From contig JASMTI010000198.1 of the NCBI GenBank assembly GCA_041694375.1, positions 12,351 through 76,350 on the forward strand: a stretch of 64,000 nucleotides of DNA. Direction: 5' to 3'. Within the stretch, counting starts at the first letter, position 1; each line of letters starts with the position of its first letter. The position numbers were made by a program, and so were the translations under genes. The notes beneath the pieces were generated by a model. That model had not been told where the DNA came from and searched no databases. It saw only the letters and a list, made by a program, of their open reading frames with translations. Origin of the DNA: Bacteroidales bacterium. GTDB taxonomy: Bacteria; Bacteroidota; Bacteroidia; Bacteroidales; Prolixibacteraceae. Shown piece by piece: positions 17,988 to 27,552 of the stretch.

Positions 17988-18028
17988 AATCTTTGTTTTA
18001 TATTTGTCTATTATATCAGGTTAATAAA

Positions 18029-18036
18029 CAAAAATA
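18029..18036 (-). promoter_or_regulatory. -7 box for the aldo/keto reductase
   Basis: Minus strand TATTTTTG. Confidence 0.45.
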
Positions 18037-18116
18037 CGAAAACATTTGGTTATTTTAAAAGTTAAATAAATTAGTATAAAATAGTTTTTTAGTTATTATC
18101 AAAAATATCGAAAGAG

Positions 18117-18701
18117 ATGCCGAAAATTGACTTTAAACCCGGGACCATGGTTTATCCGTTACCCGCTGCCATGGTAAGTTGTGGAGAGAACGAACAGGAG
18201 TACAATATCATTACCATTGCCTGGACTGGAACTGTAAACAGTAACCCGCCCATGTGTTATATTTCAGTCAGGCCCGAACGTCATTCACACGCAATTATTA
18301 AGCGTACCGGTGAGTTTGTAATTAACCTTACAACCGAAAATATGTCGAAAGAAACCGATTGGTGCGGCTGCCGAAGCGGGCGCAAGTTCAATAAGTGGGA
18401 AGAAATGAACTTAACCCCTTCGCCGGCAAAAGTTGTAAAAGCCCCCATTATTGAAGAAGCTCCTGTGAGCATTGAGTGTATTGTGAAAGACATTATCTCA
18501 TTAGGGTCACACGATATGTTTTTGGCAGAAGTTGTTAATGTTCGTGTTGATGATAAATATATGGATAATGAAACTGGAAAATTTGATTTGGCCGGTGCCA
18601 ATCCATTGGTATTCAATCATGGGGCTTATTTCAAACTCGGACAAAAAATAGGTAAATTTGGATATTCGGTACAAAAGAAAAAGCGGGCAAAAAAGAAATG
18701 A
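18117..18701 (+). CDS. Flavin reductase-like (DIM6/NTAB) protein
   Basis: YPLPAAMVSC, NIITIAWTG, GEFVINL, GSHDMFLAEV. Confidence 0.9.
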   Translation: MPKIDFKPGTMVYPLPAAMVSCGENEQEYNIITIAWTGTVNSNPPMCYISVRPERHSHAIIKRTGEFVINLTTENMSKETDWCGCRSGRKFNKWEEMNLTPSPAKVVKAPIIEEAPVSIECIVKDIISLGSHDMFLAEVVNVRVDDKYMDNETGKFDLAGANPLVFNHGAYFKLGQKIGKFGYSVQKKKRAKKK

Positions 18702-18711
18702 TATGGTTATT

Positions 18712-20052
18712 TTATTCGTATGATTTGCGATCATCCTCTATGGCATTCATAACGCACCTGAATCCTATGTAACTTCGTGCTGTATCCTGATATTCGTAAT
18801 CGCGTGATGATACTTCAAGATAGTATGAAACATCTTTCCATGACCCACCCCTGACAACTTTACGCTTGAGTGCCGGGGCATCTTCTGTTTCAGCCTTGTA
18901 TTGAAGCTCGGGGTTAAGATCATTAACCATGGCATAGCCAAGTTCATCGAAAGTTGTACTGGTCCATTCAGAAACGTTACCGGCCATATCATATAAACCA
19001 TAGTCGTTTGGCGGAAAACTAGCAACTTTCATTGCTTTGGCCGAACCATAACTATCCGATATATAATCTCCCCTTTTGGGTTTAAAATTTGCTTGGTAGC
19101 ATCCCTTTTCATCTGAAGTGTAATAGCTTCCCCACGGATATTTTCCTCCCATACGGCCACCACGGGCAGCATATTCCCATTCGGCCTCGGTAGGTAACCG
19201 GTAGGCATGTAAAGGCTGCAAGTCGTGTTCAGCCAAGAACATTTTTTTATATTCGGTACGCCAATGGCAAAATGCATTTGCCTGTTCCCAGCTTACACCT
19301 ACAACCGGATATTGTTTAAATGCTGGGTGGTGAAAATATTTTAGGGTCCATGGCTCATTGTACGAATATGTAAAGTCCCTGATCCAAACAAGTGTATCGG
19401 GGTACACTGGCACTGATTCTTGTACTAAAAAATCTAGGCGGTTGTTAATGTCGTTATTGTACGACTGTGTTTCGTAATTATAACTATTAGCTCTTTTGGC
19501 CGCCTTTTTAAGGTCGATATATGCATATTTGTAGTGAATATCCCTATAGTCAATTTCTTTTTCACCATAAAATCGTTCTTCTTTCTGGTAGTAAAGTGGT
19601 GATATTGCATCAATTACATCTTGCCGATCGTCGGTCCATATTTGCTTTATCTTTGTCCGGTCAACTTGGGGGGGATCATAAAGCTGATCATTTTTATCGG
19701 TTGCCATATAATACTCAATGCCCGCCTTAAAGGTTAACGATGCAGCAACAGAATCGCGTACCCAGTTTATATATTCACGGTATTCATTATTGGTAATTTC
19801 AGTATCGTCCATCCAGAATGAACCAACTGACACATTTCTTTCAGGTTGAATACGGCTCTCACTTGATTCGTCACCCAGCCCCATTTTAAAAGAACCTTGT
19901 TTTACGTATGACATCCCGTAGGGGATGGGTTCAAACCAATCGGGGCGGGGGCCACCCTGTAATGTGTGGATAGCATTTTCCTTTTTACACCCTGCGAATA
20001 CCATCACAAGCAGAAAAGCAAAAATAATATATTTGGTTTTGATACTGTTCAC
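18712..20052 (-). CDS. porK: Second PorK/GldK paralog, T9SS ring lipoprotein
   Basis: GTG start, lipobox FAG-C, FWMDDTEITNNEYR, YPDTLVWIRDF, YPVVGVSW, RLPTEAEWEYAARGG, YIGFRCV. Confidence 0.88.
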   Translation of the reverse strand: MNSIKTKYIIFAFLLVMVFAGCKKENAIHTLQGGPRPDWFEPIPYGMSYVKQGSFKMGLGDESSESRIQPERNVSVGSFWMDDTEITNNEYREYINWVRDSVAASLTFKAGIEYYMATDKNDQLYDPPQVDRTKIKQIWTDDRQDVIDAISPLYYQKEERFYGEKEIDYRDIHYKYAYIDLKKAAKRANSYNYETQSYNNDINNRLDFLVQESVPVYPDTLVWIRDFTYSYNEPWTLKYFHHPAFKQYPVVGVSWEQANAFCHWRTEYKKMFLAEHDLQPLHAYRLPTEAEWEYAARGGRMGGKYPWGSYYTSDEKGCYQANFKPKRGDYISDSYGSAKAMKVASFPPNDYGLYDMAGNVSEWTSTTFDELGYAMVNDLNPELQYKAETEDAPALKRKVVRGGSWKDVSYYLEVSSRDYEYQDTARSYIGFRCVMNAIEDDRKSYE

Positions 20053-20083
20053 ACAAATGATTTTGTTTGATAACGTACAACTG

Positions 20084-20091
20084 CAAAAATA
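20084..20091 (-). promoter_or_regulatory. -7 box giving the second porK its own promoter
   Basis: Minus strand TATTTTTG about 32 bp upstream of the GTG. No clear -33 box. Confidence 0.5.
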
Positions 20092-20099
20092 ATTGCTTT

Positions 20100-20137
20100 A
20101 AACTGAAAAGCCCTATGGTTTTCTTCCATAAGGCTTT
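20100..20137 (-). terminator. Probable intrinsic terminator after porN
   Basis: Minus strand AAAGCCTTATGG-AAGAAAA-CCATAGGGCTTT forms a 12-bp stem with one G.U pair, followed by TCAGTTT. Confidence 0.65.
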
Positions 20138-20165
20138 ATATTTTTATATTATATGGGATAAAGTC

Positions 20166-21035
20166 TTAATTTTCCCACAAATCTTGTTCAGCATCAAATA
20201 TTTCACGTTTGATACGTTCCGATTCCATTTGGGCTTCACGCCCGGTAAGGTAATCGGTAATCAGACGGTCGTTATATACATTTGACTCCTGAACGAAGTA
20301 TGACCTGAAATAGCGATTGACAAACACATCGTCGAACGAGTTTGAAGGCTTGTCATCCTCAAGGTTGTAATAAGGTACCGTTGCCAGATATGGACGGGCA
20401 TCGGGATAATAAATCCAAAATAAACGCTGCCTGCGTAACATATCGTTGTAGGTATACTCCCTTATAGGACAAAGTCCGATAATTTCACTTCGTAGTTCCG
20501 AGTCAATTTTATCGATGTACCACACTTCTTTAACCAATATTTGTTTGATTTCTTCAGGTTTCCAGCGGATGGTTATGAGAGAATCGCGTGTAACTCCCGG
20601 ACGAATGGTAACCGGTACAATTTCTTCACGTTTGTTGATGTCCCTTACGTCCTCAATAGTCATAATAATATTGTTCGGGTCAAACTCAAATTCATTATTA
20701 TTGATTGGAACGCTAAAAGCATTAAAGTGTCCCATTTCAATGCCATCAATAATTGCATTTATGAAGCTTTTCCGGTTGTGTATTGTATCGGTTGGATAAT
20801 AAAGTGGCAGGTTCATTTTTTCCCGGAGGTCAATAATTTCCCAGGTAACCTTGCTCCACATAATATCTGCTTCCTTAACAAAAGGATATTTTACGTACGA
20901 CCGGTTAGACATATCGTTCTCTTGTTGATAGGTGTCGTGAAATGGACCGAATTTGTCGGTAAAACGAACACCGCTCTGCGCATTTAACAGAACTGGAAAC
21001 AAGAGTAGTAGTGTAATTTTAATTATCGCTTTCAT
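20166..21035 (-). CDS. porN: T9SS PorN/GldN
   Basis: Signal peptide, EADIMWSK..WEIIDLREKMNLPLYYP, KEVWYIDK, IIGLCP, LFWIYYP, SFDDVF. Confidence 0.92.
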   Translation of the reverse strand: MKAIIKITLLLLFPVLLNAQSGVRFTDKFGPFHDTYQQENDMSNRSYVKYPFVKEADIMWSKVTWEIIDLREKMNLPLYYPTDTIHNRKSFINAIIDGIEMGHFNAFSVPINNNEFEFDPNNIIMTIEDVRDINKREEIVPVTIRPGVTRDSLITIRWKPEEIKQILVKEVWYIDKIDSELRSEIIGLCPIREYTYNDMLRRQRLFWIYYPDARPYLATVPYYNLEDDKPSNSFDDVFVNRYFRSYFVQESNVYNDRLITDYLTGREAQMESERIKREIFDAEQDLWEN

Positions 21036-21056
21036 ACCAAAAGGTTTTAGTATTTT

Positions 21057-22697
21057 CTATTGTATTTTTAATATTATAGGTGACAACGGGCGCTCCTGGT
21101 CATCTTTGTCACCTTCAATTCTTGCTTTTATATTTTCAAAGGATACACGGTCACCTGTTCCCAGGCTATTGAGAAGCCTCCGTTGTTCAGCTGTAAATGC
21201 CCATGAGTTTGACTGCAATGTTGTGGTCATACCACCGGATGTTGGCACCGACATATCGAAGCTTACAACTTCAAATGATAAATCAAAGTCAAAGTCTTCG
21301 AGTTCAGCCATAACCCCACCTTGCAGGGCAAGGCGTTCTTGCCCAATAGTGCCTGATGTCATCCCTGCGACTTGTGCAACCGGATCGGGTACCTTCTTAA
21401 CACGGAACACCATTTCGCCCATTTCCTTCATTTCTCCGTTTAATTCGGCATTAACAATTATTCTTGTGTTTTCACCGTTGTAATCCAGTTCATTAGGTTC
21501 TACAATCCAGTTGCCGTCTGCTAATGATTCATCTTTATAAATAGTACCATTGGTACATGTTGGTGTTATATTTCCTAAAGGTACACCCGGTACTGAAATG
21601 CTTACTGGGTTTTGGAGGTTTTTGTACAATACATTCATTTTAGTGGGCGAAACCGTAACTGCCGGGCGGGCCACCTTAAAGTCAAGCGAGAATGGTTTTG
21701 TCCCGAAACCTTCACCATCGGGGTTGCGATAACGTATTTCACCATGGTATGAATATTCACCTGCCTCATTTGGTTTAATACTGAACACTGCATCTCCATT
21801 TTTAACGGGCAATGGTTGGTTTTGTCCGTCCATATAAACCTCCAACTCTTGTGTGGAGTCTTCTGCTGACAAAAAGATACGGGCTTTGTATTCTTGTCCT
21901 TGAAAAATATAGCTTGCTTCAGGTATTACCGTAGCTTTTAAACCCGTAAATTTGAATGACGAGGCATCAATCTGGTTGTATAAATGACGAAGTATTGCCG
22001 ATTCGGCATTACGCACATCAATTTGCAACTTTGATAAAAGCGTAATTGCTGCAATTACAGGTGTGGCTTCAAAATTTTGTTGTGCCCATGTCCTATAAGA
22101 ACTATCACCTTCACCTTCGCCTTTTTCGGGGTCGTCAACATCAAGTGATGAGTGTAAATTTTCAACAAGGGCAGGATAATCACCAATGATTTTAATCAAG
22201 TCTGCTTTATATTGGTTGATCTGGTTTTGTAAATTTTTCCCCTGTTCGCGGGTAAGCATTACTTCCGGGCTGGCATTTAAATCGTCTTGCCGTTCAATTA
22301 TTAAAGTATCATTATCGTTGGTTACGATGTATGGAAAATCCTCGTCTATTTCTTCGTCGGCTTCTTTGGGGGTGGCATTAACGGCTAAAGCCAGCATTTC
22401 TTTTGTGTCAATAATATAATTAATCAAAGAATCGCTTTTGGCATGAACTTCTTGTGCCATGCTACGCCAGTTTTCAACCCTGTCCTGATTCAAATCATAA
22501 GCACGGTTAAAGTCGGCCATTAAAGTTTGATTTTTGTCAGTAAAACTCAGGTATGTCTTCATCAGGCTTGAGTCAACAATTTTGAAGGCATACAGGGTTT
22601 CTGCAGCAACATTTAGTGCTAACATAGCAGTTAACACCAAATACATCATATTAATCATTTTCTGCCGGGGGGTTTCCGGACAATTCTTAGTTCCCAT
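21057..22697 (-). CDS. porM: T9SS motor subunit PorM/GldM
   Basis: TPRQKMINMMYLVLTAMLALNV and KMNVLYKNLQNPVSISVPG. Confidence 0.95.
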   Translation of the reverse strand: MGTKNCPETPRQKMINMMYLVLTAMLALNVAAETLYAFKIVDSSLMKTYLSFTDKNQTLMADFNRAYDLNQDRVENWRSMAQEVHAKSDSLINYIIDTKEMLALAVNATPKEADEEIDEDFPYIVTNDNDTLIIERQDDLNASPEVMLTREQGKNLQNQINQYKADLIKIIGDYPALVENLHSSLDVDDPEKGEGEGDSSYRTWAQQNFEATPVIAAITLLSKLQIDVRNAESAILRHLYNQIDASSFKFTGLKATVIPEASYIFQGQEYKARIFLSAEDSTQELEVYMDGQNQPLPVKNGDAVFSIKPNEAGEYSYHGEIRYRNPDGEGFGTKPFSLDFKVARPAVTVSPTKMNVLYKNLQNPVSISVPGVPLGNITPTCTNGTIYKDESLADGNWIVEPNELDYNGENTRIIVNAELNGEMKEMGEMVFRVKKVPDPVAQVAGMTSGTIGQERLALQGGVMAELEDFDFDLSFEVVSFDMSVPTSGGMTTTLQSNSWAFTAEQRRLLNSLGTGDRVSFENIKARIEGDKDDQERPLSPIILKIQ

Positions 22698-22720
22698 ATG
22701 CTATGTTCCTGCTTTTGCTT

Positions 22721-23767
22721 TTATTTACCATTAAGTGCACCCAGCATTTTTCCGTAAATATTATTCAATGCCTGGATATTCTTATTAATATCTTTCGTGT
22801 TTTGGGCAAATGCATTTGTTTCTTCAACTGATTGGTCAATCATTTTGGAGATGCTTTCAATGCCTTTGGCGTATTTGTTAACCATTTCATCTACTTGGCC
22901 GGCACCTTTAAGGTGTAGTTCGTATGCAGAATTTATGGCTGCCATATTTTTGTTTAATTTATCGAGATTGCTTGTATATTTTCCGGTTTCTTTTTCAAGT
23001 CCCTTAAATCCATGGCTAAGTGAATCGGCAACAGCTTTGTACGAATGATTTAGTTCACCAGAAGATTTCTTGAGATTTTCAGACATTTCTGAAACAGAAC
23101 TTGTCATGTTTTTACTGGCATTCTCAGTTGATTTCCGAAGATCTTCAGCTGTGCTTGTATAAATGTTAGACAAATCACCAATTGTTTTATCAACATTTTC
23201 GGCTGCTTTATTGTATGATTTTGAAATATTATCAACACTTTCTTTCATCGCAGTAGAAACCTGGTTGTTGGCGTTTACCACAGATCCTATTGATTCGGAA
23301 GCATCGTTCAAGTTTTGCACAAATTTATCGGTAGCAACAGTAGAATCAGCAATGTTTTTTAACCCTTTGGCTGTTTCTGATAAACTATGGAAACTTTCAT
23401 TCAGGTTATTTAATTCGTCAGAAGGGATATTGGCAATGCCGGATCCCCCACCTCCGTTACCAACATTCGATTGAGGGTACAATTTATCTTGTGTTTCAAA
23501 TCGTTTTTTGTCTCGTTCGCTTTCTTCACCTGTGCGCAACTGGGGGTATACAACTTTCCAGTCAGGCAATTCCATCATGGGTTCAAATGCAGAGACGAAA
23601 AAGATAATCGCTTCGATTGATAATCCAACTCCTAAAAACACACTGGCACCAGGTAAGTGCTCAAGCTTAAACAGTGCGCCAATCAACACTACCGAAGCTC
23701 CCCAACTATAAATATAGTTTTGCATGAGCTTCCATCGTTTCGAATGCAGAAATTCTCCAATATTCAT
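22721..23767 (-). CDS. porL: T9SS motor subunit PorL/GldL
   Basis: YSWGASVVLIGALFKLEH and GLSIEAIIFFVSAFEP (conserved TM Glu), then a long helical cytoplasmic domain. Confidence 0.95.
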   Translation of the reverse strand: MNIGEFLHSKRWKLMQNYIYSWGASVVLIGALFKLEHLPGASVFLGVGLSIEAIIFFVSAFEPMMELPDWKVVYPQLRTGEESERDKKRFETQDKLYPQSNVGNGGGGSGIANIPSDELNNLNESFHSLSETAKGLKNIADSTVATDKFVQNLNDASESIGSVVNANNQVSTAMKESVDNISKSYNKAAENVDKTIGDLSNIYTSTAEDLRKSTENASKNMTSSVSEMSENLKKSSGELNHSYKAVADSLSHGFKGLEKETGKYTSNLDKLNKNMAAINSAYELHLKGAGQVDEMVNKYAKGIESISKMIDQSVEETNAFAQNTKDINKNIQALNNIYGKMLGALNGK

Positions 23768-23807
23768 TTTATCTGTCTTTTAATCTGTTGCTATATAAAT
23801 TCATTTC

Positions 23808-25109
23808 TTAAAATTCATTTCCGAATGATGAACGTACCGTTCTGAATCCGATATAAGAAGTTGCAGAATCTTGGTATTCAAATGTTCGCGTAGAAACCTG
23901 AGTGTAGAATCCAACATCTTTCCAAGACCCGCCCCTGATAACTTTACGTTTCAATGCAGGAGGGTCGCTATCCTCGGCATTATATTGAAAATCAGGGTTA
24001 AGTTCGTTAACCATTGTTTGTGATAACTCATCGTATGCAGTAATGGTCCACTCGGCTACGTTACCTGCCATATCATAAAGGCCAAAATCATTCGGTGGGT
24101 ATTCTGCAACTTTCATTGTATACATGCCACCATCTTCAGAGTAGTTACCCCGCATAGGTTTATAATTTGCCATAAATTCACCCATTTGGTTGCGTGAATA
24201 ATATCCGCCCCAGGGGTACATGGCATTTTGCAGTCCGCCACGGGCTGCATATTCCCATTGATATTCGGTAGGAAGGCGGTAGTCCATTACGGTTGCTAGT
24301 TTTCGGCCCTGGAGGTAATTATTCTGCATTTGTGTTCTCCATTGACAAAATGCTTTGGCCTGATCCCAGGTTACACCTACAACCGGATAATTATCGAAAC
24401 CTACATGCCAAAAGTATTTACTGGTTCGTGGTTCGTTATATGAATATGTGAAATCCCTGATCCATACAAGCGTATCGGGGTATACATGTGTACGTTCGTG
24501 TACAATAAAATCGGCACGGCTGTCTACATTGTTGCCATATGATTGTTCTTCGTAGTTATATTTGTTTGAGCGCTTTGCTGCTTTCTGATAGTCGATCCAT
24601 GCATAATCGTAGTATAATTTACGTGTATCTATTTCGCGTTTCCCGAAAAATCGTTCTTCTGCGGGAATATATAAATCTTCGAGTGCTAGTGTATCTTTCC
24701 AGTCAATAGGTTCATCCCAGTTAAGGCCAATATAATTACCGTCAATGTCAAGGCGGGCATAATACTGTGCATTTGCATTTGAACTGTTGTATAACATTTT
24801 GCGTGCTATTGAATCGCGTACCCAGTTGGTGAATTGGCGGTATTCGTTGTTTGTAACTTCGGTATCATCCATCCAAAAGGCTTCAATTGTAATACTACGG
24901 GTAGGATTAATGCCGCTTGTTGGGTCTTCGTCGCTAGGGCCTACTCTTATGGCCCCGCGTTTAACAAATGCCATTCCGAAGGGAGTTTGCTCTACCCACG
25001 ATCCACGAGATGAAGTAGCACCTACCAACTCACCGGTTTCGCCTGATTGGGCACAACCGGTTAGTAAAATGACAGCTGCCAGTGCAATAATTAATGTATA
25101 ATTTTTCAT
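23808..25109 (-). CDS. porK: T9SS ring lipoprotein PorK/GldK (canonical position)
   Basis: Start moved to ATG 25109 (MKNYTLIIALAAVILLTG-C lipobox). GELVG, FWMDDTEVTNNEYR, YPDTLVW, YIGFRTV. Confidence 0.92.
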   Translation of the reverse strand: MKNYTLIIALAAVILLTGCAQSGETGELVGATSSRGSWVEQTPFGMAFVKRGAIRVGPSDEDPTSGINPTRSITIEAFWMDDTEVTNNEYRQFTNWVRDSIARKMLYNSSNANAQYYARLDIDGNYIGLNWDEPIDWKDTLALEDLYIPAEERFFGKREIDTRKLYYDYAWIDYQKAAKRSNKYNYEEQSYGNNVDSRADFIVHERTHVYPDTLVWIRDFTYSYNEPRTSKYFWHVGFDNYPVVGVTWDQAKAFCQWRTQMQNNYLQGRKLATVMDYRLPTEYQWEYAARGGLQNAMYPWGGYYSRNQMGEFMANYKPMRGNYSEDGGMYTMKVAEYPPNDFGLYDMAGNVAEWTITAYDELSQTMVNELNPDFQYNAEDSDPPALKRKVIRGGSWKDVGFYTQVSTRTFEYQDSATSYIGFRTVRSSFGNEF

Positions 25110-25133
25110 CAGTAAAGATTTTTTTTCAGAATG

Positions 25134-25207
25134 ATACTCCTGTTGCTTCTCGGAACAGGACACCATAATATTTTGGTTAAGGGTAACAGGCAGCATACTC
25201 CTGTTAC
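25134..25207 (-). promoter_or_regulatory. Double-hairpin element in the porP-porK gap
   Basis: Hairpins TCCTGTT/AACAGGA (25138-25160) and GTAACAGG/CCTGTTAC (25183-25207). Direct repeat ATACTCCTGTT at 25134 and 25195. Confidence 0.55.
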
Positions 25208-25265
25208 TATTCTTATTTACCGTTTGTTTCAAACATGATAATTCCATAGCAATGTTTTTCAAGTC

Positions 25266-26240
25266 CTAAAGGTATCTAATACTTTTATATTTTTGGTCTC
25301 TTTTTGCTTCAATATTAAACGAATATGTTACCAATATCTCGTGTGTAGTTGGAGCCACCAGTAACATGCTTGTATTAATATCGAGCATATAGCTTAACTT
25401 TAATCCGTTAAATAACTCAATTCCGCCTAAAAAATTAAAGGCGGCAAAATTACGGGGCGATGAACGCAAACCAAAACCAGCCCAGTATTTATCTTTAATA
25501 TATAGTGTTCCGTTAACGTCGAGCATATAAGCGCTTAAATCACTTCTCAACATAACGGATGGTTGCAAATCAAATAACGGATTGGGTAGTTCAATATTGT
25601 ATGCTCCTGTTAAATAGTAATGTGGAACATTAAATCCTGAATACCACTCTTCAGCATTAGAGCTTGAAAAAATAACATCAGAACGGTTCAGGTTTGATGC
25701 TGCCAGCCCAATGTAATAATCACTAGTTTCGTAATATAAGCCAGCACCAATACCAAACGTTATAGTCGATAAATCTGAACCGGTTGGGACCAGCGGGTCG
25801 CTTGAGGCATCAATCCAGTAATCTCCGTCAATCGATTCCCACTCAGGATTAATGCTGTAATTGGTAACGTTTAATGTTAACCCTCCACCAATAATCCCGT
25901 TAGTAAGTTGATGATGATATGAATAGGCTGCCTCAACATCAACGTTGTTGTAAAAACCCACTTCATCGCTTACGATGGTAAAACCCAAACCACTATTTGT
26001 ACCCAATATTTCAACGGGGCCTTCAACCCCAAAAACGGATGAAACCGGCTTGCCATCTCCAAAACCTGCAAACATTGTACGGTTTATAAATATGGCATTC
26101 ACCGTGCTATTTGATCCCACAAACCCCGGGTTTGCTACATGCCTGTTAAGCATATAGCTGCTAAACAAGGGTTCGTGTTGTGCATTTGCTGCTAAATTAA
26201 TTAATATTAATAAAATAAAAAAAGAAAAATAGTTTTTCAT
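25266..26240 (-). CDS. porP: T9SS PorP/SprF family outer-membrane beta-barrel
   Basis: AQHEPLFSSYMLN..ANPGFVG, PHYYLTGAY, THEILVTYSF, KSIRYL, directly upstream of porK. Confidence 0.92.
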   Translation of the reverse strand: MKNYFSFFILLILINLAANAQHEPLFSSYMLNRHVANPGFVGSNSTVNAIFINRTMFAGFGDGKPVSSVFGVEGPVEILGTNSGLGFTIVSDEVGFYNNVDVEAAYSYHHQLTNGIIGGGLTLNVTNYSINPEWESIDGDYWIDASSDPLVPTGSDLSTITFGIGAGLYYETSDYYIGLAASNLNRSDVIFSSSNAEEWYSGFNVPHYYLTGAYNIELPNPLFDLQPSVMLRSDLSAYMLDVNGTLYIKDKYWAGFGLRSSPRNFAAFNFLGGIELFNGLKLSYMLDINTSMLLVAPTTHEILVTYSFNIEAKRDQKYKSIRYL

Positions 26241-26278
26241 AAATGCTTCTCCACCTTTTACTAAAGGTATGCTGTGAA

Positions 26279-26286
26279 CAAAAATA
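26279..26286 (-). promoter_or_regulatory. -7 box for the porP-K-L-M-N operon
   Basis: Minus strand TATTTTTG about 40 bp upstream of the porP ATG. Confidence 0.5.
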
Positions 26287-26346
26287 AAACAATATACTGT
26301 TATACATCAATTATTTTAAAATATTTCAAAAAAAATGATGTTGTCC

Positions 26347-27552
26347 TCAATGTGATGGTTTTATTTTTTTGAAATTTATCCACCATCGTTCTGGTATTTC
26401 ATTGTTACATGCTTCTTCATAGTCTTTCACGGTACATGAAACCACAATGCTGTTTTGTGGTTCTTTGTTTTCAAAATCTGATTTTACCTCAAGCCACCAT
26501 CGTCCTGTTTTTTCACTTTTATAGAAAACGATTGGAAAATCAATTTCGTCTATCTGAACCTCATATTTTTTACAATATTCAAGCGAAGATTTTGGGTACT
26601 CATGTTTTCGGTTGTTGTAGCCTTCGATATAATACCAAATGATTTGTGCTGCTAATTTAGCAGTGAGTCTTTGTTTGTATTTGTCAGGGAGTGCGCCTGT
26701 TAGCCGAAATAAGTCAACACTGTCGCTAATTCCGGCGTAGCGGGCCAGCTGGCACGCCTCGTGTGCAAACAAGCCGTTTGGGGAGCCGTATGCTTGCGAA
26801 GGTGCATCTTGGGCCCTTATTGCATTAATGTCAAAATTCACCAAATTAGCATCCCTGAGATAGGGTTCACAATTTTCAAGGTCTTTTCTTATCTCACCCA
26901 GGCGGTAGTGTTCAAAATATAAACGGTTTAAGCGGTTAATTTGCGATGGTGATACAAAATATGATTGATAACCTAAACTTGTAATATTATATATATGCGA
27001 TAAGTCATTATCAATAATATATTCAAAATATGAATTTGGCTGAACATCGTTTTCATTAACATTGATATTTATCAATGAATTAATATCGACAAGATTAATG
27101 TTATTTTCAAATTCTTTATAGGCACCGATAAGTGCTGGTGTGTAATTTTGATTGCCACCAATTATTACGCTGTTAACGTTCATTGAGAAAAGCAATGAAC
27201 ACACGGTTTTAATAGCAAAAAATGTGTCTTTTGGTTCGTTGCCTTTTTTTATGGTACCTAAATCGCAAATCTGGATCCCGAGGTGATAATTTTTCAGGTT
27301 ATATAGCTGTTCCCTGATTTGCCCGGATCCGGTTGATGTTGTATGTTTTTTGTTTTGTTTCCCCGATGATTCAGGTAAGGCAAAAATGGCAATCTCGAAC
27401 TTTGAATTTTCAGGGAGGGGGGCTGCAAAACTGTTTAAAAGGATATTTTTCCCAAGTGATGCTTCACTTGTTACGTATGACATTTCGTCGAAACCTGAAG
27501 TTTCAACGGGGTCAAAATATTGCAACAACTCTTGTAATTTGTCTTTAAACAT
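26347..27552 (-). CDS. Arginase/formimidoylglutamase-fold protein, metal site degenerate
   Basis: IREQLYNL, DLG.IKKG, SPNGLFAHEACQLARYAGISD, AQIIWYYIEG, KSEKTGRWW. Start moved to ATG 27552 because a -7 box (TAGGTTTG) lies at 27589-27596. Confidence 0.8.
   Translation of the reverse strand: MFKDKLQELLQYFDPVETSGFDEMSYVTSEASLGKNILLNSFAAPLPENSKFEIAIFALPESSGKQNKKHTTSTGSGQIREQLYNLKNYHLGIQICDLGTIKKGNEPKDTFFAIKTVCSLLFSMNVNSVIIGGNQNYTPALIGAYKEFENNINLVDINSLININVNENDVQPNSYFEYIIDNDLSHIYNITSLGYQSYFVSPSQINRLNRLYFEHYRLGEIRKDLENCEPYLRDANLVNFDINAIRAQDAPSQAYGSPNGLFAHEACQLARYAGISDSVDLFRLTGALPDKYKQRLTAKLAAQIIWYYIEGYNNRKHEYPKSSLEYCKKYEVQIDEIDFPIVFYKSEKTGRWWLEVKSDFENKEPQNSIVVSCTVKDYEEACNNEIPERWWINFKKIKPSH

Follow-up and report, generated by a model that had tools for sequence, protein, structure and literature searches.

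The stretch of DNA analysed here, referred to as the window, comprises 64,000 nucleotides of contig JASMTI010000198.1 (positions 12,351 to 76,350; assembly GCA_041694375.1) from a Bacteroidales bacterium of the family Prolixibacteraceae. It carries a type IX secretion system (T9SS) gene cluster with two genes, K1 and K2, for the ring lipoprotein PorK/GldK. As far as can be read from its genes, the cluster is a variant of the known PorK system in which possession of the coupling cysteine, the residue that bonds the ring to the outer-membrane protein PorG, is split between paralogs. K1, the copy in the canonical slot, has a glutamate at this site, whilst K2 has the cysteine. Very probably K2 alone is able to form the predicted disulfide with PorG, K1 being unable to do so.

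The coupling-cysteine site in two PorK paralogs

Secretion in Porphyromonas gingivalis requires a disulfide that joins PorK Cys356 to Cys232 in the PorG C-terminal tail (PMC12365241). In Flavobacterium johnsoniae, GldK Cys343 bonds to the tails of both SprF and PorG, and is required for gliding as well as secretion (PMC12635249). Within the ring, the residue faces the outer membrane, and the papers of 2025 in which it is described term it "completely invariant" (PMC12365241, PMC12635249). The features of the window that bear on this residue are as follows.

23808..25109, minus strand: K1, PorK/GldK paralog in the canonical slot (433 amino acids, lipobox LLTGC; TIGR03525, 553 bits)
24177..24179, minus strand: K1 codon 311 (GAA, Glu), at the position of PorK Cys356 and GldK Cys343 (ungapped alignment, codon check)
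23838..23840, minus strand: K1 codon 424 (ACG, Thr), in place of the GFRC cysteine; a recent, lineage-restricted change
18712..20052, minus strand: K2, derived PorK/GldK paralog and last gene of the cluster (446 amino acids, GTG start, lipobox VFAGC; TIGR03525, 528 bits)
19099..19101, minus strand: K2 codon 318 (TGC, Cys), equivalent to PorK Cys356 and GldK Cys343 (KGCYQANFKP as against RGCFLGNFKP); predicted anchor of the PorG-tail disulfide

The alignment was made to the PorK chains of PDB entries 9mzu and 9ots, all solved relatives being P. gingivalis PorK (9MZU, 9OTS, 9P6H, 9MYJ). The cysteine that is the hallmark of PorK/GldK is thus absent from K1 (Glu311) and present in K2 (Cys318), and the oddity at the coupling site is K1, the copy in the canonical slot, not K2.

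The cysteine counts given for the three ring proteins in an initial annotation of this DNA are exact in the translations. K1 has its lipobox cysteine, Cys19, and Cys255 (AFCQW), and elsewhere reads MGEFMANYKP and GFRTV. K2 has the lipobox Cys22 together with Cys262 (AFCHW), Cys318 (KGCYQANFKP) and Cys433 (GFRCV). PorN has one conserved cysteine, residue 189 (IIGLCP), which aligns with the cysteine of P. gingivalis PorN (9mzu_B).

The AFC and GFRC cysteines most likely form a structural disulfide inherited from the formylglycine-generating enzyme (FGE) fold, as judged in part from the structure of human FGE. The GFRT sequence is confined to the K1 of the window and of its two closest relatives (L008 and L013), every other K1 having a cysteine there. 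The published statement that PorK retains a 'canonical disulfide bond' (PMC12635249) is the other basis for this pairing. F. johnsoniae GldK likewise lacks a partner for its AFC-type cysteine, Cys285, mutation of which gives no phenotype (PMC12635249); this residue is the counterpart of the AFC cysteine left unpaired in the K1 of the window.

It had been proposed that the two copies have divided the function of PorK, and that one of them alone can be covalently linked within the ring, through inter-subunit disulfides between K and N. The division, and the restriction of covalent linkage to one copy, are supported; the disulfide partner is not. The equivalent of Cys318 is the residue that bonds PorG and SprF on the outer-membrane face, and only this middle cysteine of K2 matters. 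The K-N idea fails because the cysteines map away from the K-N interface. Disulfides between K and N have been engineered, none having been reported in nature (PMC12421860), and a natural K-N disulfide is rejected in view of the literature (PMC12365241, PMC12635249, PMC12421860) together with the position of the cysteine.

The pattern seen in the window holds across its relatives. Of 61 genomes sampled from the window's GTDB family, 56 have GldK, with two copies in 44 of them, which represent about 26 genera. The coupling cysteine is present in none of 48 first-position K proteins of two-copy genomes, which have E, V, K, T, R, I, A, Y or S instead, and in 45 of 47 second-position proteins. It is found in all 12 single-copy K proteins of the family and in all 21 outgroup PorK proteins. 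Among 5.8 billion proteins, none of the 120 best K1 homologs has a cysteine at the site, and their source names are "T9SS ring complex lipoprotein PorK/GldK" or generic names of the SUMF1 family.

Both copies belong to PorK/GldK. Against the equivalog model TIGR03525, which has a curated cut-off of 350 bits, K1 scores 553.2 and K2 527.8 bits. The GldJ models TIGR03524 and TIGR03530 have cut-offs of 458 and 383 bits, far above the scores of K1 (143 and 158 bits) and K2 (155 and 162 bits). A separate GldJ-like open reading frame (ORF), scoring 453 bits, just below the cut-off, lies on another contig (C302) of the same genome. These scores and this gene rule out K2 as GldJ, and bear out the earlier view of K2 as a close PorK paralog. 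K1 and K2 can both be aligned over their full length to PorK chains, with the FGE-like fold and the PorK-specific insertion, and both lack the two catalytic cysteines of FGE. Their lipobox cysteines were read from the translations. AlphaFold2 monomer models of the two proteins, of low confidence (predicted local distance difference test, pLDDT, 62-63) and usable for fold assignment only, have P. gingivalis PorK as their best Foldseek match, with template modelling (TM) scores of 0.65-0.67 for K1 and 0.57-0.60 for K2, the corresponding value for FGEs being about 0.3. Of named species, Roseimarinus sediminis is the closest, its K1 sharing 75% identity with that of the window.

K1 does resemble GldJ in being a lipoprotein of the same fold with no coupling cysteine, the difference being that neither K1 nor K2 exceeds the range of 143-162 bits against cut-offs of 458 and 383. 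It might thus be supposed that K1 has taken on a GldJ-like role, as a cysteine-free lane lying beside K2 on the PorN layer, much as in the model of the F. johnsoniae GldJ-GldK-GldN track. GldJ is a cysteine-free relative of GldK with the FGE fold and makes no bond to SprF, and in an AlphaFold3 model GldJ and GldK run as two antiparallel lanes, each in contact with GldN (PMC12635249). The GldJ-like protein of the window's own genome has a glutamine at the aligned coupling site. Such a role for K1 is nevertheless quite unlikely, as K1 is PorK-like in all but the cysteine, with the higher GldK score, the arm motif described below and no loop insertion. Nor is K1 a substitute for a missing GldJ, because a GldJ-like gene is found in all 56 T9SS-bearing genomes of the family, single-copy and two-copy alike.

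Away from the coupling site it is K2 that has diverged, and the sites concerned are these.

25029..25034, minus strand: K1 Gly26-Glu27 of the N-terminal arm motif GEL-x-G, lost in K2
19045..19053, minus strand: K2 Ser334-Tyr335-Gly336, a Gly-to-Ser change with a two-residue insertion just past the cysteine loop

In P. gingivalis, the N-terminal arm of PorK lies across the neighbouring PorK (PMC12635249). The GEL-x-G motif, with which the ordered arm starts, is present in 48 of 48 K1 proteins and in 12 of 12 single-copy PorK proteins of the family, while the outgroups have the Gly in 21 of 21 and the Glu in 19 of 21 cases; K2 lacks the motif. The two-residue insertion is found in all 47 K2 proteins and in no K1, single-copy or outgroup PorK examined. 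The adjoining change of Gly to Ser or Asn (Ser in 37 of 47 K2 proteins) is nearly specific to K2, and a conserved C-terminal Gly is also lost there. Judged by these characters, K1 is ancestral save for its cysteine and K2 is derived save for its cysteine. A third K gene, outside the operon, was observed in one genome (L068 of G051, C1:1664137-1665417); it is of the K1 type, with no insertion, an FGEL arm motif and an Asp at the cysteine site.

Full-length K1 and K2 share 51% identity. The long identical blocks noted initially are real, the block YPDTLVWIRDFTYSYNEP being the same in both proteins; its DNA differs at 8 of 54 nucleotides, and across the gene only 103 of the 211 codons for residues identical between K1 and K2 are the same. 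Recent gene conversion as the source of these blocks is ruled out by the synonymous divergence along the whole gene. Since synonymous sites have diverged, the paralogs are old and the blocks have been kept by selection at the protein level.

Both copies are clearly under strong purifying selection. Compared with its closest relative, K1 has 94% amino acid identity and a ratio of nonsynonymous to synonymous substitution rates (dN/dS) of 0.017, which makes it the most conserved and slowest-evolving gene of the operon; for K2 the values are 84% and 0.053. It is very improbable that either gene is superfluous or in decay and that the cysteine difference is no more than functionless drift. The residue that replaces the cysteine in K1 varies widely, as would be expected at a site freed from constraint. 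However, both genes are intact in the 44 two-copy genomes and evolve at these low dN/dS values, the difference between Cys and non-Cys copies persists even in lineages whose two copies look homogenised elsewhere, and the tail cysteine of PorG has been lost in the same genus as the K cysteine.

PorG and the proposed make-up of the ring

The PorG of the window's genome emerged from a scan of small exported ORFs for those with a cysteine towards the C terminus; NF052316 and DUF6089 confirmed its identity. It is encoded on contig C225 (L092:1595-2266, plus strand) and scores 150 bits with NF052316 against a cut-off of 130. The gene lies between ppnK (NAD kinase) and uppS (undecaprenyl-diphosphate synthase), and P. 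gingivalis porG (PG0189) is likewise located just upstream of uppS. The protein has a single cysteine, in its C-terminal tail (...YWGARPCATYER). A search with Pfam PF13568 gave 12 matches in the same genome, none with a cysteine tail.

The tail cysteine is present in the PorG of 50 of 53 genomes of the family. Of the three exceptions, one is a partial match whose congener has the cysteine. The other two account for both genomes of one genus, the only one where neither K copy has the Cys318 equivalent. The PorG proteins of this genus (L093, L094) score above the cut-off and have a longer, cysteine-free C-terminal tail that is conserved between the two species. In the genus that adjoins it in the K tree, both cysteines are kept. 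The joint loss independently supports the view that, in Prolixibacteraceae, the cysteine of K and that of the PorG tail act together. At the loci of the exceptional genus (L035 of G026 and L054 of G056), the porP-K-L-M-N-K operon is intact, and the K sites are Ala/Ser and Ser/Asn. The genus looks like a natural case of a disulfide-free type IX system.

It may be proposed that the ancestral PorK had two jobs, building the ring (or track) with PorN and coupling the ring covalently to PorG, and that these were split between K1 and K2 after a duplication in early Prolixibacteraceae. K1, with its canonical slot after porP, its retained arm, its slow evolution and its lost coupling cysteine, would be the structural subunit. 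K2, with Cys318, a remodelled adjacent loop and a diverged arm, would form the disulfide with the single cysteine of the PorG tail. Together with the one PorN, the two would then make up a single mixed ring, with PorLM as its motor. On balance it seems probable that K1 and K2 do co-assemble with PorN in this way, K1 making up the bulk of the structure and K2 acting as a minority coupler.

The junction between porN and K2 bears on the dose of K2.

20107..20137, minus strand: terminator-like hairpin between porN and K2, with a 12-bp stem, a 7-nt loop and a weak U tract after it (fold z -3.0)

In most two-copy relatives the same position is occupied by a canonical hairpin with a U tract (median z = -3.3). 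Despite the saturation of synonymous sites, the stem letters GCCTTATG...CATAAGGC and a T run recur in many genera (loci L008-L071). The hairpin is not a dispersed repeat, as it occurs once in its own genome. Single-copy genomes also terminate past porN, with unrelated stems. The Bacteroidota promoter (-7) box TAnnTTTG, sought as a conserved internal promoter, precedes K2 in only a few of the loci, and an Rfam search over positions 18000-26800 gave no credible match. In the Roseimarinus group the start codon of K2 is GTG or TTG. The hairpin and this choice of start codon fit a reduced, read-through expression of K2. A low dose of K2 would be in keeping with this hairpin and with the stoichiometry in P. 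gingivalis, where only 6-7 PorG are found per 32-33 PorK (PMC12365241).

Several points weigh against a mixed ring coupled in this manner. K2 may sit in the ring otherwise than PorK does, because the motif with which the arm clasps its neighbour has been lost. The monomer models are poor (pLDDT 62-63), and co-assembly is put forward purely by inference. The disulfide does not appear to be indispensable in Prolixibacteraceae, because one genus lacks the cysteine in both K and PorG. Finally, the hairpin could equally mark K2 as a separately regulated unit.

An alternative is that there are two separate assemblies, a ring or track of K1 and PorN and another of K2, with or without PorN, performing different tasks. 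An example would be a cysteine-free track with GldJ alongside a secretion hub coupled to PorG. K2 has lost both the neighbour-clasping motif and the conserved C-terminal Gly and lies behind a terminator-like hairpin, such that it may be regulated apart from the operon, and all 56 T9SS-bearing genomes of the family have a GldJ-like gene. At one locus (L020), a second copy of porN lies past K2. Nearly every genome, however, has one porN and one set of porLM for its two K genes, and a ring of K1 alone would have no known route for force to reach PorG. In the window's own genome none of the five PorP/SprF paralogs has a tail cysteine, and there is thus no sign of coupling to adhesins of the SprF type. 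Separate assemblies are therefore rather unlikely, and a single mixed ring is preferred.

Gene order, distribution and duplication history

The remaining genes of the cluster lie upstream of K2 on the same strand.

25266..26240, minus strand: porP, PorP/SprF-family outer-membrane protein and first gene of the operon (TIGR03519, 188 bits; PF11751)
22721..23767, minus strand: porL/gldL, motor protein (TIGR03513, 170 bits)
21057..22697, minus strand: porM/gldM, motor protein (TIGR03517, 351 bits; four GldM domains, PF12081, PF21601, PF21602 and PF12080)
20166..21035, minus strand: porN/gldN, ring subunit, single copy (TIGR03523, 178 bits)

Profile matches confirm the order porP-K1-porL-porM-porN-K2 that had been read from the sequence, with six co-oriented genes on the minus strand at 18712-26240. 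K1 lies between porP and porL, as expected of a PorK gene, and K2 lies 113 nt past porN on the same strand; the gaps among K1, porL, porM and porN are 21-40 nt. The translation of porP has no cysteine. The lipoprotein start of K1, MKNYTL..., is the ATG at 25109. Its ORF reaches 51 codons further upstream, to a TTG at 25262; this extension (25110-25262, minus strand) is probably an untranslated leader, which makes the gap between porP and K1 156 nt.

The adjacency of porN and a second K gene, for which a survey had been suggested, was found throughout: every two-copy locus fetched has the order porP-K-L-M-N-K, and the two K genes are about 5 kb apart wherever they lie on one contig. At L020 (genome G003) the porN-like second ORF gives the order porP-K1-L-M-N-K2-N2, the single locus of this kind. 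Single-copy K genes are found in 12 of the 56 genomes, representing six genera. Five of the 61 genomes have no GldK, PorG or GldJ (G007, G018, G027, G028 and G057; 84-100% complete), and the complete type IX and gliding apparatus seems to have been lost in their lineages.

Outside Prolixibacteraceae, no second GldK above the cut-off was found in an order-wide search of 151 genomes, one per family and covering about 148 other families; 144 of the genomes have GldK. In all, the K-LMN-K arrangement was absent from about 205 further Bacteroidota genomes that carry GldK. Among 60 other GldK-bearing genomes of the class, one has a second copy above the cut-off, in a different architecture. This genome (G290, from another family of the class) has two complete gldK-L-M-N operons, at L146:1540-5695 and L148:2912-7720, both on the minus strand. 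One of its K proteins has the coupling cysteine (KKGCYLANFKP) and the second, more divergent one (TIGR03525, 365 bits) has a Glu there. The cysteine-less paralog of this genome breaks the reported invariance a second time, independently of the case in Prolixibacteraceae.

In the gene tree, the K proteins of Prolixibacteraceae form one clade (support 95), within which those of the single-copy genera group together (99), as the sister of the whole set of K proteins from two-copy genomes (86). Sister relationships between K1 and K2 are found in the Roseimarinus group (88) and in one other genus (100). We favour one duplication in the early Prolixibacteraceae lineage, followed by partial homogenisation in some lineages in which the difference between Cys and non-Cys copies was always kept. 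A single duplication is favoured because all K2 share rare changes, namely the insertion and the loss of the arm motif, together with a homologous junction past porN. The whole-gene tree speaks against it: a simple division into K1 and K2 clades was not obtained, and forcing K2 monophyly costs 36 log-likelihood units and is disfavoured by the approximately unbiased (AU) test (p = 0.025). To account for a tree that splits K2, one has to assume either repeated duplication or gene conversion in the distant past. A count of site patterns for converted segments had too few informative columns. Three convergent duplications of K may instead have occurred, which, if true, would be even more striking.

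Relation to characterised systems and implications

The system of the window shares with the PorKN ring of P. gingivalis the porP-K-L-M-N core, an FGE-like lipoprotein without catalytic cysteines and a PorG with a single tail cysteine, and the three non-lipid cysteines of K2 (AFC, GC-x-x-NFKP and GFRC) are in the positions seen in PorK. It differs in that one PorK does both jobs in P. gingivalis, whereas here the copy in the PorK slot has a Glu at position 356, and the cysteine is found in a second gene past porN, with a diverged arm and a two-residue loop insertion.

In F. johnsoniae, as here, a GldK with the coupling cysteine, a feature kept by K2, is accompanied by a cysteine-free companion with the FGE fold, GldJ in that species and K1 in this one. 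Unlike GldJ, K1 is a true member of the GldK family and GldJ is present besides; moreover, the five PorP/SprF paralogs are without the twin-cysteine tails of SprF.

The disulfide that ties outer-membrane proteins to the moving PorKN/GldKN ring or track was found only in 2025, and its cysteine was reported to be invariant and essential. Across about 26 genera, the paralogs described here provide natural separation-of-function forms of PorK, a cysteine-free ring type and a cysteine-bearing type with an altered arm and loop. Both are named PorK/GldK or given generic SUMF1-family names, and annotation thus masks the functional difference between them. Such variants make it possible to test how many coupling sites a ring needs, whether ring building and force transmission are separable, and whether a non-covalent substitute for the disulfide exists.

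It can tentatively be suggested that about 26 of the 32 T9SS-bearing genera sampled use a two-PorK hub with a low-dose coupler set by the conserved attenuator hairpin, and that one genus has replaced the PorK-PorG disulfide with a cysteine-free, lengthened PorG tail. If this were true, covalent coupling between the ring and the outer membrane would be tunable, and even dispensable.

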